DNA of 64,000 bases from an uncultured Actinomycetota bacterium (GCA_963724925.1 CAVRXF010000020.1:68816-132815); one strand, 5' to 3'. Numbered from the stretch's first letter, positions 578-46,986 are shown. Notes: generated from the letters alone by a model not told the origin. Made by a program: numbers and translations.

Positions 578-1177
578 CTATCGGGTGACGGCCAGGACCC
601 GGAAGCCGCGGGCGCTCGCGATGCGCGCGCACGGCATACCGAGCTCACTGGTGATCCAGCGATGCAGCGAGTCCGCGCCGAGGTGCTTCTGCACGACGAG
701 GTATGCCGTGCCCTGGCGTTCCAGCCGCGCCAGCCAACCCCTCAGCTGCTCGTGGAGCGCCGCCTTGCCGACCCGGATCGGCGGGTTGGACCAGATCGTG
801 GCGAACCTCAGGTCGGGCGGGACCTGGTCTGGAAGGCAAGCGTGGACACTCGTCAAACCCAAGGCGACGGCGTTACGCCGCGTGAGGTCCAACGCCCGTT
901 CGTTGACGTCTACGGCATACACGGCGGCGCCCGGCGAGAGCAGGCCCATGGTCAGCGCGAGCGGTCCCCACCCGCAGCCCAGGTCGAGCAGGGCACCCGC
1001 CAGCGGAGGCGGCGGCACGGTGTCCAGCAAAACGGCGGTTCCGATGTCCAGCCGGTCTGGGGAGAACACACCTGGTGCGGTCTGCACGGTGACCGACCGC
1101 CCGACCAGGCGCACGTGCAACGGCCGCACGTCCCCCAGGCTGATCGGCCGGCTGGTGAAGTAGTGCTCGCCGCTCAT
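578..1177 (-). CDS. class I SAM-dependent methyltransferase (RsmC/RsmD-like rRNA N-methyltransferase fold)
   Basis: SAM motif I is LLDLGCGWGPL and the motif IV-like sequence is WSNPPIRVG. Start set to ATG 1177 (MSGEHYFTSRP); the ORF track extends to 1228. Confidence 0.75.
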   Translation of the reverse strand: MSGEHYFTSRPISLGDVRPLHVRLVGRSVTVQTAPGVFSPDRLDIGTAVLLDTVPPPPLAGALLDLGCGWGPLALTMGLLSPGAAVYAVDVNERALDLTRRNAVALGLTSVHACLPDQVPPDLRFATIWSNPPIRVGKAALHEQLRGWLARLERQGTAYLVVQKHLGADSLHRWITSELGMPCARIASARGFRVLAVTR

Positions 1178-1265
1178 TCGGACCACGCTAGCCGGGCCGG
1201 TGCGTCGCTCCGGGTGAGCGCGGGCCAATTCGGTGGCCCGCTCGGGATGTTGTGTTCGATGTCAC

Positions 1266-1299
1266 GCTGTTCTCAATGTCAGGCTGTTCTCAATGTCAG
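1266..1299. repeat. perfect 17-bp tandem duplication (GCTGTTCTCAATGTCAG x2) in the divergent intergenic region upstream of hflX
   Basis: Read directly at 1266-1282 and 1283-1299. A degenerate third copy (GTGTTCGATGTCAC) lies just upstream. The repeat ends 12 nt before the hflX ATG and abuts its AGGAGG. Confidence 0.9.
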
Positions 1300-1311
1300 G
1301 CTAGGAGGGTT

Positions 1312-2766
1312 ATGACGAGACGAACCGAAACAACGCCGCTCAGTGCTCGTGCGGCAGCCCTGACCGACGGTGCTGACGAGTTCGAGCGCTACGACGGCTT
1401 CCTCGACGCGGGCCAGCTCGACCGGGAAGAGCGCGCCGCGCTGCGCCGCGTCGAAGGGCTGTCCACCGAGCTCGAGGACGTCACCGAGGTCGAGTACCGC
1501 CAGCTGCGCCTCGAGCGAGTGGTCCTGGCGGGCGTCTGGACCGACGGCACCGTCGAGGACGCCGAAAACTCATTGCGCGAGCTTGCCGCGCTTGCCGAGA
1601 CCGCCGGCTCGCGCGTCCTCGACGGCGTGATCCAGCGTCGTCAGCGCCCGGACGCCGCGACCTACCTCGGCAAAGGTAAGGCGCATGAGCTGCGCGACAT
1701 CGTGCTCGCTGAAGGGGCAGATACGGTCATCTGCGACAGCGAGCTGGCCCCCAGCCAGCGCCGCGCTCTCGAGGACCTGGTCAAGGTCAAGGTCATCGAC
1801 CGGACCGCCCTGATCCTGGACATCTTTGCCCAGCACGCCAAGAGCCGTGAGGGCAAGGCTCAGGTCGAGCTGGCCCAGCTGCAGTACCTGCTGCCGCGCC
1901 TGCGCGGCTGGGGCGAGTCGATGTCGCGCCAAGCCGGCGGGCGAGTCGCCGGCGGCGAGGGCATCGGCTCCCGTGGCCCGGGCGAGACCAAGATCGAGCT
2001 GGACCGGCGGCGGATCAACACCCGCGTCGCCAAGCTCAAGCGTGACATTGCCGCCATGAAGACCGGTCGGGACACCAAACGCCAGTCCAGGCGCACGAAC
2101 CACCTGCCGAGCGTGGCCATCGTCGGTTACACCAATGCGGGCAAGTCATCGCTGCTCAACCGGCTCACCGGCGCCGGCGTGCTCGTCGAGAACCAGCTGT
2201 TCGCGACGCTCGACCCGACGGTGCGCCGTGCGCAGACCATGGACGGGCGCGACTACACCCTCGTCGACACCGTCGGCTTCGTCCGGTCCCTGCCGCACCA
2301 ACTCGTCGAGGCGTTCCGCTCGACACTCGAAGAGGTCGCCGACGCGGACCTGCTGCTGCACATCGTCGACGGCTCCCATCCGGACCCGGAGGGGCAGATC
2401 GCGGCGGTCCGCGAAGTGCTGTCGCAGGTCGGCGGCGAGGAGGTCAAGGAGATCATCGTCGTCAACAAGGCCGACATTGCCGACCTTGGGGTCCTCGACC
2501 GGCTCACCCGCACGCACCGGCACGCGGCCGTCGTCTCCGCCCGCACCGGCGCGGGCGTCGACACCCTGCGCGCCATGGTCGACGCCGAGCTGCCCAGACC
2601 TGATGTCGTTGTCGACGTGCTGTTGCCCTACGAGCGCGGAGACCTGCTCAGCCTCGTCCACGCCCGGGGCGAGGTGCTCTCCACCACGCACACCGAGGCG
2701 GGCACCCGCGTCCTGGCCAAGGTGCACCAGCGAGATCAAGCCGAGCTCACGGCATACCTGACCTGA
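1312..2766 (+). CDS. hflX: GTPase HflX
   Basis: G1 is GYTNAGKSSLLN, G3 is DTVGF, G4 is NKAD, and there is an HflX-type N-terminal domain. AGGAGG lies upstream of ATG 1312. Confidence 0.93.
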   Translation: MTRRTETTPLSARAAALTDGADEFERYDGFLDAGQLDREERAALRRVEGLSTELEDVTEVEYRQLRLERVVLAGVWTDGTVEDAENSLRELAALAETAGSRVLDGVIQRRQRPDAATYLGKGKAHELRDIVLAEGADTVICDSELAPSQRRALEDLVKVKVIDRTALILDIFAQHAKSREGKAQVELAQLQYLLPRLRGWGESMSRQAGGRVAGGEGIGSRGPGETKIELDRRRINTRVAKLKRDIAAMKTGRDTKRQSRRTNHLPSVAIVGYTNAGKSSLLNRLTGAGVLVENQLFATLDPTVRRAQTMDGRDYTLVDTVGFVRSLPHQLVEAFRSTLEEVADADLLLHIVDGSHPDPEGQIAAVREVLSQVGGEEVKEIIVVNKADIADLGVLDRLTRTHRHAAVVSARTGAGVDTLRAMVDAELPRPDVVVDVLLPYERGDLLSLVHARGEVLSTTHTEAGTRVLAKVHQRDQAELTAYLT

Positions 2767-2939
2767 CCACGAGGTCCCGTGACCTTCGGCCTGTAAATCG
2801 CGAGGTTGAGATCACGCCGGACGGGTATTCCCTCGTCCCGCCCGCCGTGGCAAGTTTGGGATGGTGGCCCGTGGCCGATACTTCTGAGCGGCGTGGGTCT
2901 TGGCCAAACTTGGCACAGCCGTGATGGAAGGATGACCCC

Positions 2940-4739
2940 ATGCAGCACCTCTCTGGCTTCGACGGAATGTGGTACGCGTACGACCACTCGAAGACCGCAA
3001 AGGCCATCATGGGGTCGTTGTTCATCTTCGAGCCGACCGAGACCAACGACGCGGCCGACATCAGCTCGGTGGTCGCCCGGCTGCAGGACCGGCTCAAGGT
3101 CCTTCCACCGCTGCGTCGCCGGATTGACAGCGCCCCGGTTGGGGTCAACAACCAGTACTGGCGCGAGTGCACGGTCAACGTGCGCGAGCATGTCCGCGAG
3201 CAGATGCTTCCGGCGCCGGGCACCGACAAGGAGCTGGCACGAGCGGCGTCGGACATCATGGAGACCGGGCTGGACCGCTCCAAGCCCATGTGGGACTACA
3301 CAATTTTCCACGGGCTGTCCGGCGGCCGGCAGGCCCACCTGATGCGCATCCACCACGCCGCATGCGACGGCGGCACCATGCAGCGCGTCCTGGGCCTGCT
3401 GTCTGACTACTCAGACGAGTTCGCTCCCAACGAGAAGGACTACCCCGAGCCGCTGCAGTCCGACCGGCAGGCCAAGACCGAGATGGTGCGCAAGGGCGTC
3501 ACCCGGACCCTGCTCATGCCGAAGGACATGCTCGAAACCCAGAAAGACAGCCTCAAGTGGGTCGGCAAGCGGATCCGCGAGGACGGCGCGATGGCGGCGC
3601 CGGCCCTCGTCGCGCGGATACTCCCAGGGGCCCTCGGCCGTCCGCTTGCCAAGGTGGTCAACGGTCAGCTCGGTGAGGACGCGACGAAGGTGCAGCCGAT
3701 CCAGCCGCGGGTCATGGTGCCGGTCAGCAAGTTCAACGCGAAGATCACCGCCGAGCGCAGCTACGCATGGGTCACCCTGCCGATGCAGGACCTGCTGCGG
3801 ATCAGCAAGTACTTCGGGGTGACCTTCCACTCCCTGGTGACCTCCCTGTCGGCGTCGGCCGCTCGGCAGTTCCTGATCGCCAACGGGGAGCCGGTCGACA
3901 AGGCACTCGTCCTCATGTCGCCCTACTCGCTGCGTCGCGGCGGCGAGGAGAACTACTGGGCCAACTACGCCTCCATGTTCCTGACCGAGTTCCCGGTTCA
4001 CCTGTCCGACCCGGTCGAGCGGCTCAAGGTCTGCGGTCGAAACGTCGCCGAGTCCCGCGCCAACTTCGACACGATGCCGACCGACATGATGATCGACATG
4101 AGCCGGATGATGCCGCAGCTCATGTGGGATGCCATGTACAAGACCGTCGACTACGCACCGGAGGCGCTGATCAAGCGCTCGTCGATGGGCGGCAACTTCA
4201 CCATCTCCAACATCCGCGGGCCGTCCAAGCGGTTCCACATGTACGGCGCGGATATCACCGAGTTCCTCCCGGTGTCGTTCCTGGGCCAAGGCCTCGCGCA
4301 CAACGTCACCTGCAGCTCGTATGCCGCTGAGCTGCAGATCGGCTTCGTCGGGTGCCCCACGGTGTTCCCGGACAGTGAGCTGTGGGACTGGCCAGGCTAC
4401 TACCGCAACGCGGTCGAGGAGCTACTCGACGTCATGGACGTCGAACAGGTCCTTACGCCGTCTGCGCCCTCCGCGGTGGCGCTCTCGGTCAGTGCTCCGG
4501 CACGGACCAGGAAGGCGGCCGCGCCGCGCAAGGTCGCCAAGAAGGCCACGCCTGCTCGCCGCAAAGCCGCCGCAACTGCGCAGCCCGCCCCGGCGAAGCG
4601 CACGCCCCGCAAGAAGGCCGCCCCTGCCGCACCAGCAGCGCCGGCCGCAGAGGTAGCGACCGTGGAGAGCACCGACAACGTGGAGACCACAGACAACGTG
4701 GAGACCACAGACAACGTGGAGACCACAGACAACGGCTGA
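2940..4739 (+). CDS. wax ester synthase/diacylglycerol acyltransferase (WS/DGAT) with Lys/Ala/Pro-rich C-terminal tail
   Basis: The HHxxxDG active-site motif appears as IHHAACDGG. The catalytic part has typical WS/DGAT length, followed by a roughly 95-aa low-complexity tail. Confidence 0.88.
   Translation: MQHLSGFDGMWYAYDHSKTAKAIMGSLFIFEPTETNDAADISSVVARLQDRLKVLPPLRRRIDSAPVGVNNQYWRECTVNVREHVREQMLPAPGTDKELARAASDIMETGLDRSKPMWDYTIFHGLSGGRQAHLMRIHHAACDGGTMQRVLGLLSDYSDEFAPNEKDYPEPLQSDRQAKTEMVRKGVTRTLLMPKDMLETQKDSLKWVGKRIREDGAMAAPALVARILPGALGRPLAKVVNGQLGEDATKVQPIQPRVMVPVSKFNAKITAERSYAWVTLPMQDLLRISKYFGVTFHSLVTSLSASAARQFLIANGEPVDKALVLMSPYSLRRGGEENYWANYASMFLTEFPVHLSDPVERLKVCGRNVAESRANFDTMPTDMMIDMSRMMPQLMWDAMYKTVDYAPEALIKRSSMGGNFTISNIRGPSKRFHMYGADITEFLPVSFLGQGLAHNVTCSSYAAELQIGFVGCPTVFPDSELWDWPGYYRNAVEELLDVMDVEQVLTPSAPSAVALSVSAPARTRKAAAPRKVAKKATPARRKAAATAQPAPAKRTPRKKAAPAAPAAPAAEVATVESTDNVETTDNVETTDNVETTDNG
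4662..4733 (+). repeat. 4 x 18-bp in-frame tandem repeat encoding (V-E-S/T-T-D-N)x4 at the 3' end of the WS/DGAT gene
   Basis: GTGGAGA(G/C)CAC(C/A)GACAAC is repeated four times head to tail; the last three copies are identical. Confidence 0.95.
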
Positions 4740-4807
4740 CCCTCGGGCGCTGGCACGTCGTTGTGTACAGCGCCCGGGCGCCGAACCAGCCGGCATACCC
4801 TGGCCCC

Positions 4808-7027
4808 GTGCCCTCCCTCGACCAGCTGCTGCATGCCGCGGTCGCAGCCCTTGATGGATCAGAACGCCCGGGCCAAGTGCAGATGATGCACGCCGTCCAG
4901 CACGCCATCGACTCAGGGGAGCACCTGCTGGTGCAGGCCGGGACGGGCACGGGCAAGTCCCTCGCCTACCTTGTGCCGGCCGTGGTGCACGCGATCGACA
5001 CTGGGCGGCCGGTCGTCGTCGCAACCGCCACCTTGGCGCTGCAGGCCCAGGTCGTCGACCGCGACTTGCCCCGGCTGGCCGACGCGCTGGCGCCGCTGCT
5101 CGGGCGGCGCCCCACCTTCGCCATGGTCAAGGGGCGGCGCAACTACCTGTGCGTCCACAAGCTCGCCGGCGGCTTCCCGCAGTGGGACGACGACGGTCTG
5201 CTCACCGTGGAGCAGGTGGACCAGGCCGCGTCCCGCCTTGGTCGCGAGGTGACCCGGCTGCGCGAATGGGCGCAGGCCACGGCTTCGGGGGACCGGGACG
5301 AGCTCGTCCCCGGAGTGTCCGAGCGGGCCTGGCGGCAGGTGTCGGTGTCCGCGTACGAATGCCTGGGCAGCAAATGCCCCCTTGTCGAGGAGTGCTTCGT
5401 CGAGCAGGCGCGCGACGCAGCCCAGGACGTCGACATCATCGCGACGAACCACTCGTTCATGGCCATCGACGCGTTCGAGGGTCTGCAGATGCTGCCCCAG
5501 CACGATGTGCTCGTCGTCGACGAGGCCCACGAGCTGACCGACCGGATCACCTCGACGGTCACCGACGAGCTCACGGCCGCAGCGGTGTTGGCGGCGGCGA
5601 AGCGCAGCGCTCGGCTCAGCGAACGCAGCGAAGCGGCCGAAGCGGCCGGAGAGCTGTTCGGCAGCGTCCTGGACGGTATGCCGGAGGGTCGCGTCCTGGC
5701 CCTGCCGGACTCGCTGGTGCTCGCCGTTACAAGGGTCCACGACACCGCCCGCGAGCTGCAGAGCGACCTCAAACCAGTACCCGGCGCTCCCGCCGACGGG
5801 GCTCGTCAGGTGGCCCGCGCTGGCGTCGACGAGGTGTTCGAGACGGCCCAGCGAATCCTCGCGGGCCGGCCGTTGGACGTCGTGTGGGTGGCCCACGACC
5901 CGCGCCGCGGGGCCGTCCTTCGGGTGGCGCCGATGAGCGTTGCCGGGCTCGCTCGGGAAACGATCTTCCCGGGCCGCACTGTCGTGCTCACCTCAGCCAC
6001 CCTGGAACTGGGCGGCACGTTCGACGCGGTCGCCGGAGCACTCGGGCTTCGCGGTGACGAGGCGCCCGCCTGGTCCAGCCAGGACGTCGGCAGCCCGTTC
6101 GACTACCGCCGCCAGGCGATCGCCTACGTTGCCGCCCAGCTGCCAGCGCCCGGCCGCGACGGCACCGCCACCGCAGTGGTGGACGAGATCGAGGCGCTGG
6201 TGCGGGCAGCCGGCGGGCGCACCCTCGGGCTGTTCTCGTCGATGCGCGCCGCCCTGGCCGCGACCGAGACGCTGCGCCAGCGGTTTGCCGATGATGGCAC
6301 GGCCATCGACGTGCTCTGCCAAGGCGAGGACCAGCTGGCGACGCTGGTCCGAGCGTTCGGCCGCGACGCACGAACCTGCCTCTTCGGCACGCTAAGCCTC
6401 TGGCAGGGTGTCGACGTGCCCGGCTCCGCGTGCCAGCTCGTGCTTATCGACCGCATCCCGTTCCCGCGGCCCGACGACCCGCTGGCCTCCGCACGCACCC
6501 AGGCGATCTCGCGCATGGGCGGCAACGGCTTCATGGCGGTTTCGGCCACGCATGCGGCTCTGCGGCTGGCGCAGGGTGCGGGACGGCTGATCCGCCGCCA
6601 CGACGACCGCGGTGTTGTCGCCTTCCTCGACTCGCGGATGATCTCGGCTACGTATGCCGGGTTCCTCCAGCGCTCCGTGCCGCCGCTGTGGCCGACGACC
6701 GACCGGGAGATGGTCCTCGCGGCGCTGCGCCGGCTCGACGAGCTGGCGCCGGAGCCGCTACCCGTGCTGGACCCCAGCCTGCGGGCGGCGCACGAAGCCG
6801 TGCCGCAGGCGGCGGGCGCTCCGCCGACCGTCCCGTCGCCACGCACGGCAGTGACCGGTGGGTATGCGTGGACCAGCGCCCAGGAAAGCGAGCTGCGCGA
6901 CGCTGCCGAGGCCGGGATCGCGCTCGAGGAGCTCGCCGAGCACTTCGAGCGTCCGGCAGCGGTCATCTCGGCACGGCTGGCGCAGCTGGGGTTGGCTCTG
7001 CCCGAGGCGCAGCTGTTCGGCGACTAG
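4808..7027 (+). CDS. dinG: ATP-dependent DNA helicase, DinG/XPD-like
   Basis: Walker A is AGTGTGKS and the DEAH box is VVDEAHEL. The 881-aa track ORF overlaps the WS/DGAT gene in another frame, so the start was set to the in-frame GTG at 4808 (VPSLDQLLHAAV); GTG 4763 is an alternative. Confidence 0.85.
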   Translation: MPSLDQLLHAAVAALDGSERPGQVQMMHAVQHAIDSGEHLLVQAGTGTGKSLAYLVPAVVHAIDTGRPVVVATATLALQAQVVDRDLPRLADALAPLLGRRPTFAMVKGRRNYLCVHKLAGGFPQWDDDGLLTVEQVDQAASRLGREVTRLREWAQATASGDRDELVPGVSERAWRQVSVSAYECLGSKCPLVEECFVEQARDAAQDVDIIATNHSFMAIDAFEGLQMLPQHDVLVVDEAHELTDRITSTVTDELTAAAVLAAAKRSARLSERSEAAEAAGELFGSVLDGMPEGRVLALPDSLVLAVTRVHDTARELQSDLKPVPGAPADGARQVARAGVDEVFETAQRILAGRPLDVVWVAHDPRRGAVLRVAPMSVAGLARETIFPGRTVVLTSATLELGGTFDAVAGALGLRGDEAPAWSSQDVGSPFDYRRQAIAYVAAQLPAPGRDGTATAVVDEIEALVRAAGGRTLGLFSSMRAALAATETLRQRFADDGTAIDVLCQGEDQLATLVRAFGRDARTCLFGTLSLWQGVDVPGSACQLVLIDRIPFPRPDDPLASARTQAISRMGGNGFMAVSATHAALRLAQGAGRLIRRHDDRGVVAFLDSRMISATYAGFLQRSVPPLWPTTDREMVLAALRRLDELAPEPLPVLDPSLRAAHEAVPQAAGAPPTVPSPRTAVTGGYAWTSAQESELRDAAEAGIALEELAEHFERPAAVISARLAQLGLALPEAQLFGD

Positions 7028-7038
7028 CAGATCCCCCT

Positions 7039-7149
7039 GAGGCGGCAGAATCCTCCCCGAGCGGGAGGCGGCAGATAGGTGCACACGGCGGCAGTTGTAG
7101 GTGCCGCCATATGGACCTGTCTGCCGCCTTACCCGGGAACTGCCGCCTT
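7039..7149. repeat. three nested inverted repeats built from GGCGGCAG / CTGCCGCC units between convergent genes (likely bidirectional terminator)
   Basis: GGCGGCAG occurs at 7041, 7067 and 7087. The complementary (C)TGCCGCC occurs at 7102, 7121 and 7140. The arms pair inner to inner, middle to middle (13/14) and outer to outer. Confidence 0.8.
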
Positions 7150-7193
7150 ACCTGGGGAGCTGGCCACGGGCCGATACAGCCCGGCCAGCTCGG

Positions 7194-7610
7194 CTACGAG
7201 CCGCCTCGGCGGGGCTCTCCTCGGTAGGTCCCGAACGACCATTGGTTGCCTTCGGGGTCACGCAGTCCGAAGTCGCGCGAGCCGTAGTCGGTGTCAGACG
7301 GCTCGCGGGTGATCTCGGCACCCGCTGCCTTCGCCCGTGCGCACAGCGCATCGGGCTCGTCCGTGACGACGTAGACGCTCATGGTTCCGGGAGCGCCCAC
7401 CTGGTCAGCTCCCTGCTCTCGCACCGACCCGAGCATGATGCCCCCGCCGAGCGGCCACGACAGCTCCGCGTGGTCGACGACGGCGCCCTCGCCGTGCACG
7501 ACGGTGGCCTCGAACCCGAGTGCGTCGGTGAGGAACCGGATCAGGGCCCGGGCGTCGCGGGCCCGGACGCTCGGCCAGACGGTGGGGGCAGGTGCAGTCT
7601 CATCGGTCAT
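7194..7610 (-). CDS. VOC (glyoxalase/bleomycin-resistance) family protein
   Basis: Small VOC-fold protein ending ...GLRDPEGNQWSFG. Start set to ATG 7610 (MTDETAP). Confidence 0.75.
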   Translation of the reverse strand: MTDETAPAPTVWPSVRARDARALIRFLTDALGFEATVVHGEGAVVDHAELSWPLGGGIMLGSVREQGADQVGAPGTMSVYVVTDEPDALCARAKAAGAEITREPSDTDYGSRDFGLRDPEGNQWSFGTYRGEPRRGGS

Positions 7611-7614
7611 GGCC

Positions 7615-8425
7615 TCAGTCTGGCGGTGCCGAGTCCACGGTGGCTTGTACGTTTGCGAACTCGGTTGCCAGCCACTCACTCGGCGAGCAGCCGGCCAGCC
7701 CGCGGAACTCCCGCGCCAGGTGGGCCTGGTCGTAGTACCCACCCTCAGCCGCAGCAGACGCCAGAGCCGACCATGGGCGCATCCGCCGGCGAGTCCGGTC
7801 GAACCGAGTGACCCGCATCGCCGCCTTGGGGGTCAAACCAGTCTCCGCGCGGAACTGGTTTTGCAGGTGGCGAGGGCTCCAGCCGACGTCGCGAGCCAGC
7901 TCAGCGATGCTGAGCCGCCCGCCGGACGCGACTACCAGCTGCCAAGCCCGGCATACCTCGGGCGCCGGCCGGTCCGCCCGCCGGTTTAGGGCACGGACGA
8001 GAACCCCGTCGAGCGCCGCCGCCCGCTGCCGCCAGCATGCCGCACCCTCGAGCCGGTCGCAGAATCTCGTCCGCCACCGAGCCGAGCACCTGGCTGCCGT
8101 GCAGGTCGGTGCCGGCGAGCTCACCGGCTGGCAGCCCGAGCAGCGCCCGGGCGCCAAGAGGGGACAGGCTGACCTGCACGCCAGCCTGCTCGCCGTCGTG
8201 GGTGATGATGGCTGGCGTGGTGTGCAGCCCGCCTACCAGCGAGCGGTAGCTGCCGCCGGCCTGCCGCGGGTCCGGATGAGCCGCGACGTGCAGTGGCACC
8301 GAGAATGTGAAGATCAGGGTGAGGTAGGGCGAGGGCAGACCGCGGTGGACCATCGGTGGCACGCCCCGCTGGCGGTATGCCGAGTAGCCCGCGACCCAGC
8401 CGCGCAGCGCCGGATGAGGGCGCAT
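7615..8425 (-). pseudogene. AraC-family transcriptional regulator, frameshifted as given
   Basis: The N-terminal part (MRPHPALRGWVAGYSAY...) lies in one frame. The HTH_AraC part (LSIAELARDVGWSPRHLQNQFRAETGLTPK...) lies in the +1 frame, with the junction near 8063-8064. ATG 8503 is an alternative start. Confidence 0.75.
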
Positions 8426-8542
8426 CCGGACCTGCTCGTCGACACGAACGGCCACCGGTTCGGGCTGTAGGTGAGCTACCACTGTGGCCCAACGGTAGGC
8501 CATCCCGCGCCGAGTGTCTCCTGCGCGTGACAGGCTGGGCGC

Positions 8543-9514
8543 GTGACCTCGACCGTGCCGGCGTTGGTGCTCGTCAGTGGCCCAGAAGCCGTCTTGGCCG
8601 AGCGCGCGGTCACTGGCCTGCTCACCCGGCTTCGTAAGAGCGATCCGGATCTCGAGGTGATCCGGGTCGCGGCCACCGCGTACCAGCCGGGGGCGCTGGC
8701 GCTGCATACCAGCCCGTCGTTGTTCGGTAACGCCAGGGCCATCGTCCTGGACGGCCTCGAGGAGGCGTCCGACGAACTGCTCACCGACACGCTCGACGTG
8801 CTCGGGTTGCCGGCCGAGGAGGTCACCCTCGTCGTGGTCCACCGCTCGGGGCAACGGGGCAAGAAGGTGCTCGACGAGCTACGTCGGCGCAGAGCCGAAG
8901 TGCTCGAGTGCCCGGCCATCCGCACCGACCGCGACAAGGCCGACTTCGTCGTGGGCGAGTTCCGGCGGCTCGGACGCAAGTCGACGCCGGATGCGGTCCG
9001 GGCCCTGGTCGAGGCCCTGGGCCGCGACGTGCGCGAGCTCGCGTCCGCGTGTCAGCAGCTCGCCGACGACACCGACGGTGTGATCGACGATCGGGTCGTC
9101 GATCTCTACTACGGCGGCAAAGTGGAGGCGACCGGCTTCCGGGTGGCCGATGCTGCGCTCGCCGGACAGACGGGGGAGGCCCTGCGGCTGCTGCGGCACG
9201 CGATCGCCACCGGCCTGGACCCTGTCCCGATCGTCGCCGTTCTCGCCGCGCAGCTCCGCACGGTGGTCAAGGTGGCAGCTGCCGGCCGCGGCAGCTCGGC
9301 CCAGGTGGCCAAGGCGCTCGGGCTGGCGCCCTGGCAGGTCGACAAGGCGCGACGCTCCAGCTCGCATTGGGACGGACCCGCGCTCGCCCGAGCCATCCAG
9401 TCGGTGGCGGCCGCGGACGTCGAGGTCAAGGGGGGTGGCCGCGACCCGGTGTATGCCGTGGAGCGCGCCCTTCTGGAGCTCGCCGGGGCGCGGGGCGCTG
9501 GACGTGGCAGGTAG
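8543..9514 (+). CDS. holA: DNA polymerase III subunit delta
   Basis: Length and sequence pattern fit HolA (LVSGPE..L, helical C-terminal domain). It sits next to rpsT and lepA, as in other actinobacteria. Confidence 0.7.
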
Positions 9515-30281: not shown

Positions 30282-30399
30282 GCACCCATCCTGCCTGCCG
30301 CCACTGACGGCCCAAAAGCGCGCAACGCTCGCGCCGTCCGGGCGACCCGCCAGGGCGGGGGATTGGACGATTCGTGCGCGCGCGGCATACCCTGTCCCC

Positions 30400-30508: not shown

Positions 30509-32275
<1,767 letters not shown>

Positions 32276-36643: not shown

Positions 36644-37423
36644 CGGCATACCAGCGCCCCTTCCCGCACCCGTCCGGAGCGACGCCCCCGACGCTGCCGG
36701 CCGAGCTGGTCCCGGGCCACGTCGCCGTCGTCATGGACGGCAACGGCCGCTGGGCGAACGCCCGCGGACTGCCCAGAACGAAGGGCCATGAGGCCGGCGA
36801 GGCGGCGTTGCTCGACGTCGTCGCCGGTGCCATCGAGATCGGCGTCCAGCCACCTGTCGGCATACGCGTTCTCCACGGAGAACTGGCGCCGCTCGCCCGA
36901 CGAGGTGCGCTTCCTCATGGGCTTCAACCGCGACGTGATCCGCCGTCGCCGGGACCAGCTGCACTCGTGGGGCGTGCGGATGCGCTGGGTGGGCCGGCGG
37001 CCGCGACTGTGGCGTTCGGTAATCCACGAGCTGGAGGTCGCCCAGGAGCTGACCCGGCACAACACCGGGCTGACCCTGCATTTCTGCGTGAACTACGGTG
37101 GCCGCGCCGAGATCGCCGACGCGGTGCAGCGGATCGCCGAGCAGGTCGAAGCCGGGCGGCTCTCGCCGCGGGCCATCGACGAGCGCACCATCGCCCGGCA
37201 CCTGGACGACCCGACCATGCCCGACGTCGACCTGTTCGTCCGCTCATCGGGAGAGCAGCGCACATCGAACTTCCTGCTCTGGCAGTCGGCCTACGCCGAG
37301 CTGGTCTTCCTCGACACGCTGTGGCCGGACTTCGACCGACGCCACCTGTGGGCTGCGATCGAGACGTATGCCGCGCGCGACCGCCGCTACGGCGGGGCGG
37401 TCGACCGCGCTCGCCGGCCCTGA
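36640..37423 (+). pseudogene. uppS: isoprenyl transferase (undecaprenyl/decaprenyl diphosphate synthase), one +1 frameshift as given
   Basis: [13 protein letters not shown]...[21 protein letters not shown] is in one frame. [19 protein letters not shown]...NYGGRAEI...[14 protein letters not shown] is in the +1 frame. The break is at CC 36850-36851. The GTG start overlaps the recO stop (GTGA). Confidence 0.88.
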
Positions 37424-37471: not shown

Positions 37472-37864
37472 CTAGCCGGCGCAGTCGCCGCAGGTGCCGA
37501 CGATCTCCACGGTGTGCGCGACGTCGCGGAACCCGTGGTGGCGGCTCACTCGGTCGGCCCAAGCCTCCACGGCCGGACCTTCGACCTCCACCGTGCGCCG
37601 GCAGGACCGGCATACCAGGTGGTGATGGTGCCCCGTGCTGCACCGCCGGTAGGCGGCCTCACCGTCTGGCCCCCGGAGCACGTCGACCTCGCCGTCCGAT
37701 GCCAAGGCCTGCAGGGTGCGGTAGACGGTGGCGAGGCCGATCGGGTTGCCGCTCAGGCGAAGCCGGGCATGCAGGTCCTGGGCAGAGGTGAAGTCCTCGG
37801 TGCGCTCGAGCAGGTCGGCGACGGCCGCCCGCTGGCGGGTAAGCCGGCGCTCGGGCTCGGGCAT
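37472..37864 (-). CDS. zur: Fur-family zinc uptake regulator
   Basis: Fur fold with HHHLVCRSC and CGDC metal sites. It is the last gene of the znuACB-zur transcription unit. Confidence 0.85.
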
Positions 37865-38850: not shown

Positions 38851-39659
38851 GGAGCCCCCTCCCGATCGAGCGGACCGCTCGGCGCCAACGGCCGAGACCG
38901 GTCCGCAAGCTCGTCGTCATGGTGGTGGCTGTGGTGCTCGTGCAGAAGGCTGTCCGCGCCGGCGAGGAAGACCTCGCGGGGGCCGTCGAAGCTGACCCGC
39001 CCCTCGTCGACGACGACCACCCGGGTCACCAGCTCGGTGATCGGCCCCATCTCGTGCGTGACGACCAGCATGGTCACGCCCTCGCCGACCAGCCGGGCCA
39101 GGACTTCGGCGAGCCCGTGCTGGGCCCGCGCGTCGACCCCAGCCGTCGGCTCGTCCATCACCAGCACGTCCGGCTCGCCGGCCAGGGCACGGGCGATGAG
39201 CACCCGACGCTGCTGCCCACCGGAGAGCTTGGCAACGTCGGTGCTGGCCCGGTCGGCCATCCCCACGACCTCGAGCGCGCGCGAGACGGCGGCCCGGTCG
39301 GCCGCGCGGCTGGGGCGCCACAGGCCGCGCCGCGAGAGCCGTCCGCACGCGACGACCTCCTCGACGGTTGCGCGCACCGACCCGGAGAGGGTGTGCCGTT
39401 GCGGCACGTACCCGATCCGATGGTGCTCGTGGAAGTCGTCGGCCGGGACGCCGAACAGCTCGACCTGGCCGCTGCGTTCGCAGATCCCGAGCAGGCCCTT
39501 GACGAGGGTGGACTTGCCCGACCCGTTCGGCCCGAGCACGGCGAGCACCTCCGACGGGTGGACCTCGAGGTCGACGTCGAGCAGGACGGTGCGGTCGGCA
39601 TACCCGAACGACGCCTGCTGCACCGAGATGACCGGTCCGTTCGTCGGGCGCGCCGTCAC
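38847..39659 (-). CDS. znuC: metal ABC transporter ATP-binding protein with His-rich C-terminus
   Basis: Walker A is GPNGSGKST, the signature is LSGGQQRR and Walker B is VLVMDEPT. The C-terminus reads LLHEHHSHHHDDE. Confidence 0.9.
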   Translation of the reverse strand: MTARPTNGPVISVQQASFGYADRTVLLDVDLEVHPSEVLAVLGPNGSGKSTLVKGLLGICERSGQVELFGVPADDFHEHHRIGYVPQRHTLSGSVRATVEEVVACGRLSRRGLWRPSRAADRAAVSRALEVVGMADRASTDVAKLSGGQQRRVLIARALAGEPDVLVMDEPTAGVDARAQHGLAEVLARLVGEGVTMLVVTHEMGPITELVTRVVVVDEGRVSFDGPREVFLAGADSLLHEHHSHHHDDELADRSRPLAPSGPLDREGAP

Positions 39660-40597
39660 GAGCAGCCTTGTCCCGCACGCAGGGCCGCCAGGTTGGCACG
39701 CATGATCTCGGGGTAGCTCGAGCCGGCTGAGCTGGCCGTAACGCCCTCCACCGGGTCGAGCACGGCAAGCGTGGCCCCGGTGCTCGTCGCTATCGTCTGG
39801 GCGTACTTGGTATCGACGAGCGTCTCGGCGTAGATCGTCGTTGCCTTGGCGGCCCGGACCGTCGCGGTGACGTCGGCGAGCGCCTTTGCCGACGGCTCCT
39901 GGTCCGGGCTCAGCCCGGCGATCGGCACCTGGGTGAAGCCGTAGCGGCCCGCCAGGTAGCCGAAGGCTGCGTGGCTGGTCACCAGCTGGCGGTTCGCGCA
40001 GGAGGCGAGCCCGGTGCGGTATGCCGTGTCGAGGTCGCCGAGCTCGGTCGCGAGCGCCGCCGCGTTGGCCCGGAAGTCCGCAGCATGCGGCGGGTCGAGC
40101 TGGGCAAGACGCTCGCCGATCGCAGTTGCGACCGTGCTCAGACGCTGGGGGTCCAGCCAGAAGTGCAGGTCCCGGCCGGCGTCCTCGCCGGCCGGGGCAC
40201 CAGCGGCCCGGGTGAGGTCGAGGTTGGCCACCGTCGCCACGTCGAAGCCGGTGGCGCTGGCCTGCGCCGCGACTGCGGTGTCGACCGCCGGTTGCAGCCC
40301 GCCGAGATAGACGACCAGCGCTGCGCGACGCAGCCCTGCGACGTCCTGGGAGGTCAGCTCGAGGTCATGCGGCTCGACGCCTGGCTTGGTCAGCGTGTTG
40401 ACGGCCAGGTGGTCGCCGCCGACCTTGGTCAGCGCGTATTCGAGCGGGTAGAACGACGCGGTTGCGTTCAGGCGGCCGTCCGACCCGGCAGCCGTGCTGC
40501 CTGCCGGGGGCGGCCCGCCCGCACCCGAGCAAGCGGCCAGCACAAGCGCAGCCCAGCCGGCCAGGGCAAGGCGCAGCAGGGTGGCTCGACACGGCAT
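39656..40597 (-). CDS. znuA: metal ABC transporter substrate-binding lipoprotein
   Basis: Lipobox is LAACSG and the protein has the ZnuA/TroA cluster-9 fold pattern. It is the first gene of the operon. Confidence 0.88.
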   Translation of the reverse strand: MPCRATLLRLALAGWAALVLAACSGAGGPPPAGSTAAGSDGRLNATASFYPLEYALTKVGGDHLAVNTLTKPGVEPHDLELTSQDVAGLRRAALVVYLGGLQPAVDTAVAAQASATGFDVATVANLDLTRAAGAPAGEDAGRDLHFWLDPQRLSTVATAIGERLAQLDPPHAADFRANAAALATELGDLDTAYRTGLASCANRQLVTSHAAFGYLAGRYGFTQVPIAGLSPDQEPSAKALADVTATVRAAKATTIYAETLVDTKYAQTIATSTGATLAVLDPVEGVTASSAGSSYPEIMRANLAALRAGQGCS

Positions 40598-40616
40598 ACC
40601 GCGATGGTGAAGTAAA

Positions 40617-40631: not shown

Positions 40632-40647
40632 ACTAGTGCACCGGTCC

Positions 40648-40932: not shown

Positions 40933-40965
40933 AGCCAGCAGGCTACGGGACGTTAGCCTTGCCCC

Positions 40966-42360
<1,395 letters not shown>

Positions 42361-42415
42361 GACAATCAGAAGTGGCCCTGATGGCGCACTCGGGTCCTCG
42401 CGACTGAGACGGCCC

Positions 42416-42925
42416 ATGCCTCTGTGGAGTCGACTGGCGGACCTGCCGCGCGACCGCCTCGCCGAGCAGGTGAGCGCGGCGTCCTACGGCACCATCCTGG
42501 TGCTCGCCGCGCTGCCGTTGATCAGTGCGGTCGAGGTGGCCTCCGGATGGGGCTGGGAGCTGGTCACCGGCGTGGGACTGGCGACGTGGGTGGCCCACCT
42601 GTATGCCGAGGTGGTCGGAGACCGCATGCGCACGGACGCGGCCCCGGACCGCATGGAGCTGCGCCGGGCCATGCTAGACGGCCTGCCGATCCTGCTTGCT
42701 GCGTTGCCTCCGGCAGCCATCCTGCTGGTCGGGCGCCTCGGGGTGCTCGACCCTCGGCTGGCAGTGTGGTTGGCCGTCGCCGTCGCCATCCTGCAGCTCG
42801 TCGGCCTCGGCGCGTTCGTGGGATGGGCCGTTTCCCCGCGTGGTCCAGGAGCATGGTGGTATGCGGGGGTAACCGCCGCCATCGGCCTAGCCGTCGTTAC
42901 GCTCAAACTGCGCCTCGGCCACTGA
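42416..42925 (+). CDS. integral membrane protein, unknown function
   Basis: 169 aa with about five hydrophobic segments and GC3-rich codon usage. Confidence 0.55.
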   Translation: MPLWSRLADLPRDRLAEQVSAASYGTILVLAALPLISAVEVASGWGWELVTGVGLATWVAHLYAEVVGDRMRTDAAPDRMELRRAMLDGLPILLAALPPAAILLVGRLGVLDPRLAVWLAVAVAILQLVGLGAFVGWAVSPRGPGAWWYAGVTAAIGLAVVTLKLRLGH

Positions 42926-42946
42926 CCGACGCGGAATACTGGTCCC

Positions 42947-43828
42947 ATGCCCCGCCAGCCGTTGCCTCCCCTCACGCCCGGCTGGGTCATCGTCGACGGC
43001 TTGCCGGTCTTTCACCGGGTCCACACGGAGGCCGGCGACGACGGCACGCCGATCGTGCACGTGCACGGGTTCGGCATCTCCGGGACCTACCTCGAGCCGA
43101 CGGCCGCGCTGCTCGCGCCGCGCCACCGCACGTTCGTCCCAGACCTGCCCGGGATGGGACGAAGCGTGCGGCCCGAGCGCGGGCTCGACCTGCCTGGGCT
43201 GGCCCGGGCACTGGTGTCCTACCTCGACGCTGTCGAGATCGATCGAGCCACGTTTGTGGGCAACTCCCTTGGCTGTCCGATCATCGTGGAAGTGGCCACC
43301 ACGTTTCCCGATCGCATCGACCGTGCGGTGCTGGTCTCGCCAGCTGGGGGACCCAACAACATCCCGTTGCCGCGGGCGCTGCGGCAGATGGCCATGGACG
43401 GGCTTCGTGAGCCGCCGTCGATGGTGCCGATCGCCACGCGCGACTACCTTCGGTTCGGCGTGCTGCAGAGCCTGTCCCTGTTCCGCGCGATGACGCGCTA
43501 CCCGACGCTCGAGCGCCTGCACAACCTGGTGGCGCCGACGCTCGTGATCGCGGGAGACCGCGACCCGCTGGTGAACATCGGCCGGGTGTTCGTCCTCAAT
43601 GCGCTGCCCCACGTGCAGGCCGTCAAGGTGCACGGGGCGCACGCCCTGAACTACAGCGCACCCGACCTGATCGCCCACCTCGTGGAGGCGCACGTCAGCG
43701 GTCGGCCGCTTGTCACGGCGGGGCCGGAGGGCACTTTCGAGGTTGTTCCGATCCCGCCACACCTGGTGGCCGCGGGCCAGACGGTAGAGGCCGGAGTCGG
43801 TATGCCGTCCGCCGACCCGCCGCGGTGA
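42947..43828 (+). CDS. alpha/beta hydrolase
   Basis: Contains HGFGISG, with the nucleophile elbow GNSLG. Confidence 0.8.
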   Translation: MPRQPLPPLTPGWVIVDGLPVFHRVHTEAGDDGTPIVHVHGFGISGTYLEPTAALLAPRHRTFVPDLPGMGRSVRPERGLDLPGLARALVSYLDAVEIDRATFVGNSLGCPIIVEVATTFPDRIDRAVLVSPAGGPNNIPLPRALRQMAMDGLREPPSMVPIATRDYLRFGVLQSLSLFRAMTRYPTLERLHNLVAPTLVIAGDRDPLVNIGRVFVLNALPHVQAVKVHGAHALNYSAPDLIAHLVEAHVSGRPLVTAGPEGTFEVVPIPPHLVAAGQTVEAGVGMPSADPPR

Positions 43829-44673: not shown

Positions 44674-44820
44674 GAAGGATCATGCGGTTCGGACATCGTG
44701 GTGGCCCATCTGGGCCGCAGTGCACCGGTGGGGCTGTTCCTGTTGCGACCAACGAAGTTGGGGCCGGCCACCGCCACGGCGGCGTGGGAACCGCTTGCCG
44801 TCGCACGGCCGGAAATGACC

Positions 44821-45219: not shown

Positions 45220-45233
45220 CCTACACTGGGACC

Positions 45234-45546
45234 ATGGTGACAGGCTCGGGGACGGCGCATCGCCGCCTGCAGCGCCTGAAGGACCAACGCGAGGCCATCC
45301 AGGACCTGGTGCGCTCCCACAAGGGTCGCTCCGTGGCCGTGGTCGGGTCCGTCGCGCGCGGTGACGACACCGCCGACAGCGATATCGACCTACTCGTGGA
45401 ATTCGAACCCGCGAGTTCTCTGCTTGACCTCATTGCTCTCGAGGCGGCCCTGGAGGACCTGCTGGGGACGCAGGTCGACGTCATCTCCGCGGGCGCCCTA
45501 CTCGATCGCGACGTCGACATCCGCCGCGACGCTGTGGCCCTTGTGA
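45234..45546 (+). CDS. nucleotidyltransferase (MNT) antitoxin of a HEPN/MNT pair; stop codon apparently lost by a 1-nt insertion
   Basis: Contains GSVARGDDTADSDIDLLVEF (GSxxRG...DxD). In the given frame it reads through into the HEPN gene. Deleting one G at 45536-45537 gives ...DAVPL-TGA with the usual GTGA overlap. Confidence 0.8.
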
Positions 45547-45876
45547 GTCGCTCCGACACCCGCCGGCTGGCCGACATGCTCATGGCCGCCGACGAAATCA
45601 ACAACATCACCGCGCGAGGGCGCACCGCGTTCGACGCCGACGTTGCCCTGCGCCGCGCGGTGGAACGGTGCCTGGAGATCGTCGGTGAGGCAGGCAAAAG
45701 CAGTGTCCGACGAGGTACGAGCCCAGCATCCGGACGTTCCCTGGACGTCGATGGCGAGGATCCGCGATCGCCTCAGCCACCACTACCATCGCATCGACCC
45801 CGATCAGTTGTGGACTGTCGCAACGACCGACATTCCCGCACTTGTCGATCAACTGCGACGCATGCAGGCCAGCTGA
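45543..45876 (+). pseudogene. HEPN (DUF86) toxin, +1 frameshift in an A4 run
   Basis: ...AVERCLEIVGEAGK lies in one frame. AVSDEVRAQHPDVPWTSMARIRDRLSHHYHRID, which carries the Rx4H motif, lies in the +1 frame. The break is at AAAA 45696-45699. Confidence 0.8.
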
Positions 45877-46419
45877 GCCCGACCTACGCCGACAACCGGC
45901 TCGACCGGCGAAAGCTGCTTCCGATTCTGCCGATGAGCGCGCGTCCTTCCCGCCCAGTAGGACGCACAGCACAGCGTTGAGGCACTGAGATTAGGCCCCG
46001 GGCCGGGGAGCATGCCCGACTTGCGGCTGGAGGCAGTCCGCGTCCCCATGGCCCCAGGATCCTCGGCTTCTCCGAGCGTGGGCCAAGAGCACCACAATCG
46101 ACGGTGGCACTGGTCCAGGTCACTACCTGCAGCGACACTCTGGAGAACTCGGTCGTGTCAGGCCCTCGCTCCCATCCGCTGGCTGGCGGGCGAGCGTCAA
46201 CGTCTGTGGCAGCCCCCTGGCGTTAGACGGCGAACTTGGCTCCGCACACGAGCCGACCATCCTCACCGCTGATGAGCGAGCGCCGGTGCGGACGGCCAAC
46301 GTAGGCGGCGGCGCCCTGGCAGGCTCTCCTGCCGGCGGGGCTCATCGTTCGAAGTCGATGCTGTTGACTGTGCCTGTATGAGGTCGCACGCTGGTGCCCT
46401 CGTCTGGGCGGAGGGCTCC

Positions 46420-46986
46420 ATGGGCAAGTTGATCTACGCCGCCAACATCTCGCTCGACGGCTTCCTCGAGGACGAGACGGGTTCGTTCGACTGGTCCGTG
46501 CCGGACGAGGGCGTGCACGCGTTCTGGAACGAGCACGAGCGGCACATCGGCACGTCGCTCTACGGGCGACGCATGTACGAGACGATGCGCGTGTGGGAGA
46601 GCGACGACTGGTTGACGAACGAGCCCCCGGTGGTCCGCGAGTATGCCGGGATCTGGCGTGACGCTGACAAGGTCGTCTACTCCACCTCACTGGCCGATGT
46701 GTCCACCGCGCGCACGAGGATCGAGCGGCAGTTCGAGCCCGAGGCGGTGCGACGGCTCAAGGAGACCTCCGGATCGGACCTGAGCATCGGAGGCGCGGGC
46801 ATCGCGGCCGAGGCCTTCCGGCACGGCCTGGTCGACGAGTGCGTGCTGCTGCTGTGCCCGGCCCTCGTCGGCGGCGGCAAGCCGGCGCTGCCTCGAGGCG
46901 TACGACTTGACCTCCAGCTGCTGGACCACCGTCGATTCGACAACGGCGTGGTCTACGTCCGCCATGCGGTCCGACACCCCGCCTGA
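46420..46986 (+). CDS. dihydrofolate reductase family protein (RibD C-terminal domain type)
   Basis: N-terminus reads MGKLIYAANISLDGF and a later motif reads IGGAGIAAEAFRHGLVDE. GGAGGG lies upstream of ATG 46420. Confidence 0.8.
   Translation: MGKLIYAANISLDGFLEDETGSFDWSVPDEGVHAFWNEHERHIGTSLYGRRMYETMRVWESDDWLTNEPPVVREYAGIWRDADKVVYSTSLADVSTARTRIERQFEPEAVRRLKETSGSDLSIGGAGIAAEAFRHGLVDECVLLLCPALVGGGKPALPRGVRLDLQLLDHRRFDNGVVYVRHAVRHPA

Follow-up and report, generated by a model that had tools for sequence, protein, structure and literature searches.

The 64-kb stretch of DNA analyzed here (GCA_963724925.1, CAVRXF010000020.1:68816-132815, from an uncultured Actinomycetota bacterium; this whole stretch is referred to as the window), which is core chromosome of a member of the Micrococcales, carries a short, exact word, CGGCATAC, in 46 copies, 23 on each strand. 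We directly observed (i) the abundance and sharpness of this word; (ii) its strand symmetry; (iii) its confinement to one clade; (iv) the conservation of its sites, accompanied by turnover; (v) its effect on encoded proteins; and (vi) its absence from imported DNA. The selection or drive at the DNA level that had been proposed in an earlier reading of the sequence alone (the sequence-only reading) is strongly supported as a force independent of protein coding and base composition, because the excess of the word survives a codon-aware null model, because compatible positions are occupied far more often in motif-bearing genomes than in others (47% vs 2.6%), and because lineages have gained copies at the cost of rare codons and amino acid replacements. 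As the source of this force we tentatively favor a molecular drive exerted through biased DNA exchange, resembling that of the uptake signal sequences (USS) and DNA uptake sequences (DUS) of other bacteria.

Our exact search reproduced the hand count of the sequence-only reading, including its listed coordinates, which for the minus strand are one lower where the leading G of GGTATGCCG had been marked; the range of 632-46648 given there leaves out the last two copies (63898 and 63952), although both had been listed. The accompanying crude estimate was about 2 copies by chance. Dinucleotide-preserving shuffles yield 1.24 copies (maximum 5), and an order-3 Markov model 2.15, a value that falls to 0.65 if the model is trained on sequence with the motif masked. 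We also shuffled synonymous codons within each called gene of a gene map derived from codon statistics, a procedure that leaves the proteins unchanged and retains the codon usage of each individual gene, rare codons contributed by the motif itself included. This resulted in 4.07 +/- 1.95 copies (maximum 10 in 500 shuffles), as compared with 41 copies inside called genes. The enrichment of CGGCATAC is 20- to 70-fold over the composition nulls and 10-fold over the codon-aware one, so that the excess (46 copies, 41 of them in genes, against at most 4.07) withstands Markov and codon-aware models alike, and composition or codon usage is ruled out as its cause.

The word has sharp boundaries. Within the window, GGCATAC is preceded by C in 46 of 48 cases and CGGCATA is followed by C in 46 of 46; the 24 one-mismatch variants of CGGCATAC total 54, where 35 are expected. 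Preferences at the adjoining bases are weak: C at position +1 extends 25 of the 46 copies to the 9-mer CGGCATACC, and A stands at -1 in 20 of 46 (P = 6e-6), which agrees with the 25 extended copies, about half of all copies preceded by A, that had been reported from the sequence alone. Since the flanks of the 46 copies are unstructured beyond -1 and +1, CGGCATAC is an isolated 8-base word, as had also been supposed, and a larger dispersed repeat family is ruled out. The word is not its own reverse complement, being asymmetric and hence no palindrome of the HIP1 (highly iterated palindrome) type, and no known methyltransferase target was recognized in it. Its density in the native part of the window is 0.94 per kb, with a spacing more even than random (coefficient of variation 0.72 vs 0.98, P about 0.01); over eight combined loci this evenness is weak (z = -1.7).

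Orientation, reading frames and distribution among genomes

Copies in called genes (41 of 46) are almost equally divided between sense (20) and antisense (21), and over 11 loci the two orientations stand at 89:99. Because neither strand nor transcription bias is seen, signals read on RNA and replication-polar signals are excluded, and the symmetry is consistent with a process indifferent to the orientation of the DNA. In five loci the balance is exact (window 23:23, L001 12:12, L004 13:13, L005 6:6, L207 13:13; the numbered loci belong to the census given below), and across the 11 loci it is tighter than binomial (P = 0.015, post hoc), which may hint that both orientations are needed locally.

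The copies in called genes use all six frame classes, namely Tyr-Ala (xxG TAT GCC Gxx, 15 copies), Ala-Tyr (xCG GCA TAC, 10), Gly-Ile (GGC ATA C, with the rare ATA codon, 7), Met-Pro (xGT ATG CCG, 5), Arg-His-Thr (CGG CAT ACx, 3) and Val-Cys-Arg (GTA TGC CGx, 1). The hosts are unrelated housekeeping genes (hflX, lepA, holA, hemW, era, ybeY, leuA, recO, uppS and an RND transporter gene, among others), and five of the 46 copies fall outside the called genes, as compared with about 7 expected there. This placement in unrelated genes and multiple frames is as the sequence-only reading had described it. Its further claim, that the word forces rare codons, holds for ATA and TAT, 7 of 11 and 15 of 33 of which, respectively, lie within the motif in the motif-bearing part of the window. 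Of the GTA valine codons claimed, the one at 37608 (V-C-R) stands, the one at 7949 falls in a stretch not called coding, and the copy at 36386 reads R-Y-A-V, with TAT, in recO. At 41 of the 83 positions in the window where synonymous choice alone permits CGGCATAC, the word is present, and peptides compatible with it are themselves more frequent in the native part of the window than outside it (5.3 vs 1.6 per 1000 codons).

Our census comprised 80 lepA-centered loci (L001-L080) from different actinobacterial species, to which era-centered loci added four genomes. The closest relatives of the window are metagenome-assembled genomes (MAGs) of Dermatophilaceae from activated sludge (LepA 90% identical); the Dermatophilaceae/Intrasporangiaceae family includes the wastewater phosphate-accumulating Tetrasphaera-related bacteria. 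Among the lepA loci, CGGCATAC reaches 1.45 copies per kb in L001 and 1.19 in L004, followed by Ornithinimicrobium cerasi (0.59), L009 (0.58), two Terrabacter species (0.55) and L003 (0.46), with weaker densities (0.13-0.25 per kb) in Pedococcus, Ornithinibacter and one further MAG. In the era-centered loci, L207, the closest relative found, has 26 copies in 20.9 kb (1.24 per kb), Monashia sp. 15 in 21 kb (0.72 per kb), and Intrasporangium calvum DSM 43043 7 in 21 kb (0.33 per kb, 28-fold over expectation). Altogether, the enrichment is 28- to 70-fold in I. calvum, Terrabacter, Monashia, Ornithinimicrobium and several Dermatophilaceae MAGs. The loci of Janibacter and Luteipulveratus yielded zero copies. 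In about 70 further actinobacterial loci, from Arthrobacter, Cellulomonas, Microbacterium, Streptomyces and others, the count never exceeds two per locus, about the number given by chance. A substitute word in neighboring lineages was also looked for, and no different 8-mer is comparably over-represented in the remaining census loci.

The comparison with related genomes that had been suggested from the sequence alone places the motif in one clade, at partly conserved sites; CGGCATAC is natural and limited to a single Dermatophilaceae/Intrasporangiaceae clade. Most motif genomes cluster together in a LepA tree, with a gradient of density. The distribution is somewhat patchy, because Ornithinimicrobium lies outside this cluster and Janibacter is without the motif. 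Furthermore, the base at -1 depends on the lineage: it is A in the window (20 of 46) and in L207 (15 of 26), G in I. calvum (7 of 7, and all 7-8 copies of the two I. calvum strains L205 and L206), mostly G in L001 and L003, and C in L004. Reminiscent of the dialects of DUS, this could be a dialect of the recognized sequence, or else a by-product of the frames used. The clade distribution and the lineage-specific -1 base, together with the motif-free island treated below, go beyond the sequence-only reading. As a separate observation, L207 carries at 19748-19902, within a gene just upstream of a sortase-like gene, nine tandem 18-bp units of GGCAACAAGGGTGACCAG, which encode a Gly/Asn/Lys/Asp/Gln-rich peptide repeat and are unrelated to the motif.

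These independent genomes also bear on whether the pattern might be an artefact, be it remnants of the Illumina P7 adapter, which contains the word within CAAGCAGAAGACGGCATACGAGAT, base-calling errors of long reads at a modified site, or an implanted pattern. Single-base indels between the window and locus L201 in kdpD/E suggest that error-prone assemblies are involved, and the adapter does contain CGGCATAC. The match to the adapter is, however, only 8 bases long, and 25 of 46 copies continue with C, where the adapter has G; copies lie in frame within conserved genes, and the same word is found at partly orthologous positions in independent assemblies. Adapter remnants or long-read errors cannot explain the pattern, since independent assemblies are enriched in the word as well, among them the I. 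calvum genome, which was finished with 454 and Illumina data (PMC3035309), and we give an artefact virtually no credence. The presence of CGGCATAC inside CAAGCAGAAGACGGCATACGAGAT is a coincidence; it adds noise to literature and read searches, and the trimming of adapters might shorten reads of these genomes.

Conservation, gain and location of individual sites

We compared seven conserved genes between motif genomes and 55 other actinobacteria. Amino-acid-compatible positions are occupied by CGGCATAC in 27 of 58 cases (47%) in the motif genomes, as compared with 9 of 351 (2.6%) in the 55 others, and motif-compatible peptides amount to 4.0 vs 2.9 per 1000 codons in these orthologous genes. Certain sites are shared across genera: the GGC ATA C site in hemW is common to the window, both Terrabacter species, L009 and Ornithinimicrobium, and the AAG TAT GCC site in lepA is common to the window, L001, L003 and L004, most other aligned loci having TAC. 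In the two Terrabacter species, which are 87.7% identical in nucleotide sequence, 7 of 9 alignable sites are intact, where 0.35 would be expected for a neutral 8-mer.

A second group of sites is confined to single lineages. The window and L207 share 6 coding sites, and each has 4 of its own. With I. calvum as outgroup, the window lineage has gained copies by TAC>TAT in leuA, GCG>GCA in uppS and CTG>ATG in era, the last of which replaces Leu by Met; in L004, private sites in hemW change Pro-Glu-Ser to Pro-Ala-Tyr and Arg-Tyr-Asp-Glu to Arg-Tyr-Ala-Glu. Relative to the outgroup consensus, the word has arisen mostly by G>A and C>A at its A/T core (motif positions 5 and 7), and the amino acid departs from that consensus at 16 of 19 mapped sites. 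The lineage-private gains include synonymous as well as replacement changes, and the process that creates the word is therefore ongoing or recent in several lineages; it holds sites above neutral decay and has reshaped proteins.

The direction of the changes allows us to weigh a mutational or repair by-product, without function or transmission advantage, which might consist of a hot spot of deamination, where a methylated C in GTACGCCG is converted to yield GTATGCCG, or of VSP-like (very-short-patch) repair that invariably brings back the word. The commonest creating step, CGGCGTAC>CGGCATAC, indeed amounts to C>T at a CpG of the opposite strand (TAC>TAT, GCG>GCA). The precursor CGGCGTAC is nevertheless not depleted (7 observed vs 3.1 expected), and precursor and product together number 53, where about 3.8 are expected, whereas a hot spot only shifts the equilibrium mass of the precursor. 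Other routes are used as well, such as ATC>ATA (C>A), CTG>ATG and multi-base changes with amino acid replacement, and sites are conserved above the neutral expectation. The deamination hot spot is rejected by this mass balance and by the alternative routes. VSP-type repair, which the sequence-only reading had entertained, is rejected likewise: it turns T:G into C:G and has no way of forming the ATA core, the observed changes being mostly from G/C to A. We regard a by-product of either kind as very improbable.

The locations of the individual copies follow, the sign in brackets being the strand of the copy. Antisense copies of the Tyr-Ala class begin with 913-920(+) in the MTS-methyltransferase gene at 578-1186(-) (V-Y-A-V), 4319-4326(-) in a WS/DGAT gene (S-Y-A-A, with TAT) and 6652-6659(-) in the helicase gene (T-Y-A-G), the last being kept in L001, L005 and L006. 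They continue with 9451-9458(-) in holA (V-Y-A-V), which has TAT here as compared with TAC in motif-free genomes, with the lepA site at 10468-10475(-) (K-Y-A-A; TAT in the window, L001, L003 and L004), and with 12092-12099(-) in an RND/MMPL transporter gene (V-Y-A-G). Those at 21353-21360(+) in a PfkB kinase gene on the minus strand (A-Y-A-A) and at 24186-24193(-) in a HIT gene (E-Y-A-D) occur in L207 too, as does 37366-37373(-) in uppS (T-Y-A-A). Further copies of the class lie at 25490-25497(-) in ybeY (G-Y-A-V), at 31210-31217(-) in leuA (V-Y-A-D), where L207 and I. calvum have TAC, making it a synonymous gain in the window lineage, and at 36386-36393(-) in recO. The remaining ones are found at 39596-39603(+) in an ABC ATPase gene on the minus strand (G-Y-A-D), at 42601-42608(-) in the gene at 42416-42925(+) (L-Y-A-E), and at 46641-46648(-) in a RibD_C gene (E-Y-A-G), which is the last copy before the motif-free stretch.

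Sense copies of the Ala-Tyr class read T-A-Y at 701-708(-) in the MTS-methyltransferase gene, at 2750-2757(+) in an hflX-like GTPase gene, at 17660-17667(+) in the hemW-like gene, at 22839-22846(-) in a Gmad2/Germane gene on the minus strand (also in L207), at 28959-28966(+) in a PIG-L deacetylase gene and at 40019-40026(-) in a znuA-like gene on the minus strand. The class also includes P-A-Y at 4791-4798(+) in the DinG-like helicase gene and S-A-Y at 36858-36865(+) in uppS, a synonymous gain in the window lineage where L207 and I. calvum have TCT/TCC GCG TAC. Just past the IS5-like element (IS, insertion sequence), the motif resumes with S-A-Y at 63898-63905(+) and A-A-Y at 63952-63959(+), both in the gene at 63648-63998(+).

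The Gly-Ile copies, sense and with ATA throughout, are R-G-I-P at 14051-14058(+) in the RND transporter gene, G-G-I-P at 16016-16023(-) in a tyrosine-phosphatase gene on the minus strand, H-G-I-R at 17046-17053(+) in the hemW-like radical SAM gene (also in L005, L006, L009 and L037), D-G-I-Q at 23883-23890(+) in the HIT gene, H-G-I-L at 25808-25815(+) in ybeY (ATC in I. calvum), N-G-I-P at 31630-31637(+) in leuA (also in L207) and D-G-I-P at 36644-36651(+) in recO. In the antisense Met-Pro class, G-M-P is encoded opposite the copies at 632-639(+) in the MTS-methyltransferase gene, 5676-5683(-) in the helicase gene, 20914-20921(-) in the rsmE-like gene and 43800-43807(-) in an alpha/beta hydrolase gene; the copy at 27530-27537(-) in era gives C-M-P, for which L207 and I. 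calvum have C-L-P (CTG), and is the replacement gain in the window lineage. R-H-T is read in the sense direction at 20451-20458(+) in the rsmE-like gene (CAT), at 27379-27386(+) in era (also in L207; CGC CAC ACG in I. calvum) and at 34111-34118(-) in an FAD monooxygenase gene on the minus strand, and the single V-C-R copy, at 37608-37615(+), is antisense in the gene at 37472-37864(-).

Of the copies outside these classes, 30383-30390(+) lies between an M4 peptidase gene and leuA, possibly in a 5' extension of the peptidase open reading frame (ORF), 30546-30553(-) at the 5' end of leuA, and 40592-40599(+) across the start of the znuA-like gene. The copies at 7949-7956(+) and 8375-8382(-) are in a stretch not called coding: at 7610-8543, about 0.9 kb upstream of holA, the coding signal is unconvincing and ORFs are without a Pfam match, yet both copies are present. 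A search of positions 1-64000 with ARAGORN found no tRNA gene.

The motif-free stretch and the kdp block

Between 46649 and 63897, the window has a 17.2-kb stretch of lower G+C without a single copy of CGGCATAC, which corresponds to an IS-flanked island of K+ transport genes; such a gap has a probability of 7e-8 at the density of the first 46 kb. It encodes AAA_28, CorA, Kup, KdpABC, KdpD/E and an IS5-like transposase, and none of its 6 amino-acid-compatible positions is occupied. Its kdpFABC-kdpDE block, at 51790-61024(+), is 97.35% identical to positions 7308-16540 of L201, where the block has different neighbors, with IS110 and IS3 elements nearby, and where no copy of CGGCATAC occurs in 19.3 kb. 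KdpA has a foreign match of 98% identity, and Angustibacter and Nocardioides provide matches of 83-85%; for the core protein Era, non-self matches do not exceed 86%. Because of the 97% identical, differently flanked copy, and of the 98% match of KdpA as compared with at best 86% for Era, at least the kdp block is recently transferred DNA. CGGCATAC marks long-resident DNA.

Judging from its sequence, the kdpFABC-kdpDE block looks like a mobile cassette for K+ uptake that moves between actinobacteria; a plasmid search with the motif-free island returned generic kdp similarity only. In L201, the block adjoins a second, diverged kdp operon that is broken by the IS110 element, and the IS3 element then follows. 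KdpD and KdpE form one fused sensor-regulator of 1112 residues there. Relative to L201, positions 56698-60100 of the window contain single-base indels at 58045, 59227, 59830, 59839, 60014 and 60077-60078, which split kdpD/E into several ORFs and reflect either pseudogenization or assembly error. The right edge of the motif-free stretch is formed by the IS5-like transposase at 61936-63273(+), composed of two ORFs (DUF772 and DDE_Tnp_1) about 280 bp apart; it may be frameshifted or decayed.

Enrichment in native DNA and absence from the imported island are what would be expected of a self tag similar to Chi, which a helicase-nuclease (RecBCD or AdnAB) or a defense system would read on one strand, sparing or repairing resident DNA and degrading DNA poor in the motif. 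Signals read by translocases (Chi, the KOPS and SRS of chromosome segregation, and the TraB recognition sequences, TRS) are asymmetric words of 5-8 bases, and dense copies on both strands could replace a replication-oriented skew: each orientation recurs at intervals of about 2 kb, so that an enzyme would soon meet a properly oriented copy from whichever end it entered. It is skew, however, that defines Chi and other architecture-imparting sequences, and here it is zero (23:23 in the window, 89:99 over 11 loci), so that replication-polar signals such as Chi and KOPS are excluded in their usual form. Selection on each site would be too weak to enforce rare codons and replacements, and we found nothing that ties the word to a nuclease. 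No Chi is known for the actinobacterial AdnAB. We therefore consider such a tag unlikely.

Proposed biased DNA exchange in comparison with known systems

The results described above require a force that favors the exact word on double-stranded DNA in either orientation, that overrides codon preference and some protein constraint, and that acts in one clade without having yet affected newly arrived DNA. To this we would give a USS/DUS-like molecular drive through biased DNA exchange as the leading explanation, with a probability of roughly 0.4. Under such a drive, homologous DNA exchange between cells of the lineage would include a step that prefers DNA bearing CGGCATAC, most simply a sequence-specific receptor in natural transformation, or alternatively a heteroduplex repair or gene conversion that is biased toward the word after DNA entry. 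Alleles that gain CGGCATAC would be over-transmitted and would displace alleles without it, so that the word would accumulate at all sites that the protein can accommodate, even where this requires rare codons or some amino acid changes, and newly imported DNA would start without it. We rank this explanation first because selection for a chromosomal role would be very weak at each site, which a transmission bias need not be, and because the drive of USS and DUS is a known mechanism that yields the whole set of features.

That per-site argument bears on the possibility of a selected site of the HIP1 type, in which a resident nucleoid-organizing factor or an orphan or asymmetric DNA methyltransferase would bind or modify the word, with numerous copies, spread evenly over the two strands, kept for chromosome structure or epigenetic marking. 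Several of our observations are compatible with it: the over-representation is within the 15- to 300-fold range of HIP1; conservation above the neutral expectation is the argument that has been used for selection in HIP1; the spacing in the window is more even than random; the post hoc orientation balance (P = 0.015) hints that both orientations are required; and the patchy phylogeny fits a dispensable reader gene. Yet selection on each of several thousand sites would be very weak, while the gains override codons and change amino acids, and the evenness of spacing is weak across loci. The window encodes no DNA methyltransferase or DNA-binding candidate, its sole methyltransferases being of the rRNA types MTS and RsmE, and a literature search for methylomes of motif-bearing genera found no data. 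Fully specified asymmetric 8-bp words are, moreover, unusual as methyltransferase targets. A selected site of this type is, in our view, possible but doubtful.

Several points weigh against biased exchange itself. We infer both the siting of the bias in DNA uptake or exchange and the reader protein. Selection for a chromosomal function would account for the conserved sites just as well, and the patchy distribution would be compatible with any reader that is dispensable or mobile. The excess of one-mismatch variants is modest (about 1.5-fold). Among the 46 copies of the window, neither a DUS-like concentration in intergenic inverted pairs or terminators nor USS-like AT-rich flanks were found. 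Finally, comEA-comEC does not adjoin holA in the window, as it usually does elsewhere; the arrangement is also missing in motif-rich loci that include the full 10 kb upstream of lepA (L003-L006, L037), and the upstream flank of L001 has no ComEC-like match.

This locus has a regular structure elsewhere in the phylum. The order leuS-comEA-comEC-holA-rpsT-lepA was found in 49 of the 80 loci by tblastn with the Arthrobacter ComEC, as well as in L202-L204, and the same search of all loci revealed no ComEC next to holA in the motif clade. In the window, the place of comEA-comEC is taken (4763-9514) by the DinG-like helicase gene, a glyoxalase gene and the uncalled 0.9-kb stretch. The motif-free Janibacter locus (L013) likewise is without the leuS-comEA-comEC-holA arrangement, and homologues of the ComEC of L007 were found on motif-free contigs only, of 76-79% G+C and with the canonical gene order. 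The I. calvum genome encodes a ComEC protein (PMC6299819, supplement); this evidence for a motif-bearing species comes from the literature, since tblastn matched no locus of the motif clade. In the same order, Micrococcus luteus is naturally transformed by means of Flp pili and ComEA/ComEC (PMC4322843).

If CGGCATAC served as a tag for uptake or exchange, it would indicate that DNA is exchanged with a sequence bias inside the lineage, in a phylum in which natural transformation has barely been studied, would point to a new DNA-recognition protein, and would imply frequent kin-biased natural transformation, or another gene conversion biased toward the word, in high-G+C Gram-positive bacteria. 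It might then aid genetic tractability and serve as a marker of native as opposed to imported DNA in metagenome bins of wastewater phosphate accumulators. We advance still more tentatively the narrower proposal that it may be a sequence-specific tag for DNA uptake or exchange, the first outside the Proteobacteria, by whose 8 bp a receptor in the Dermatophilaceae/Intrasporangiaceae would recognize self DNA. If it were instead a selected chromosomal site, it would be an asymmetric counterpart of HIP1 and could help to solve HIP1. Cultured and sequenced type strains with the word (I. calvum, Terrabacter, Ornithinimicrobium, Monashia) and close relatives without it (Janibacter, Luteipulveratus) provide a clean comparative system in which to ask how words of this kind arise.

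Among known systems, those that CGGCATAC resembles most are USS (core AAGTGCGGT, Pasteurellaceae) and DUS (GCCGTCTGAA and its dialects, Neisseriaceae), as the sequence-only reading had aptly noted for these and for HIP1. Each is likewise a short, exact, asymmetric word, present about once per kb with equal orientations, common to related genera and absent outside them, with lineage variation at the edge of the word. As with CGGCATAC, all frames are used, the less costly being preferred; encoded peptides are enriched and fall on poorly conserved residues, and turnover is combined with conservation above the neutral level. The effect on the proteome, by which the encoded peptides become enriched, was described by Findlay and Redfield (PMC2817400), and USS and DUS, which are also missing from recently acquired DNA, accumulate only after gene transfer (PMC2817400). 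In contrast, the hosts of CGGCATAC are high-G+C Actinobacteria, and the likeness is one of sequence pattern. Unlike DUS, CGGCATAC does not form terminators from inverted pairs, its copies being almost all within genes, and unlike USS, it is without AT-rich flanks; its one-mismatch excess is only modest, and the window lacks comEA-comEC next to holA.

HIP1 (GCGATCGC, cyanobacteria) shares with CGGCATAC that it is a hyper-abundant 8-mer used in all frames, conserved between genomes and limited to a clade. It reaches up to about one copy per gene, is 15- to 300-fold over-represented, and its function is unresolved (PMC5861425). However, HIP1 is a palindrome that contains methyltransferase targets (GATC, CGATCG), whereas CGGCATAC is asymmetric and has no known modifying enzyme; HIP1 also shows a periodicity of 10-90 kb, a scale for which a 64-kb window is too short. 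Chi and KOPS/SRS resemble CGGCATAC in being asymmetric words of 5-8 bases that are over-represented in the core genome, but have a strong leading-strand skew and are about 5 times rarer; CGGCATAC is unskewed and far denser. In the actinomycetes themselves, 8-bp TRS lie in the clt loci of conjugative plasmids and are read by TraB, an actinobacterial DNA-transfer protein. These are also asymmetric words, and TraB would be a conceivable alternative route to a transfer-biased drive. TRS, however, form tight clusters in plasmid clt loci and are sparse in chromosomes, whereas copies of CGGCATAC are single and dispersed, the closest pair on the same strand being 54 bp apart. A scan of viral contigs for paired copies gave chance or low-G+C tandem-repeat matches only.

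The expectation from the sequence alone that no such motif has been described in Actinobacteria agrees with what we found in the searchable literature: full-text searches for the stand-alone word and the 9-mers, which are swamped by matches to the P7 adapter, returned no relevant paper, nor did searches for abundant oligomers in the family or for uptake sequences in Actinobacteria. CGGCATAC therefore appears to be undescribed in this phylum, belonging in kind with USS, DUS and HIP1 and being in detail a new case. The mechanism behind hyper-abundant words has been worked out in few groups, i.e., for USS and DUS in two proteobacterial families, HIP1 being unexplained after decades. CGGCATAC adds to these a third independent and equally strong case, in the Actinobacteria.

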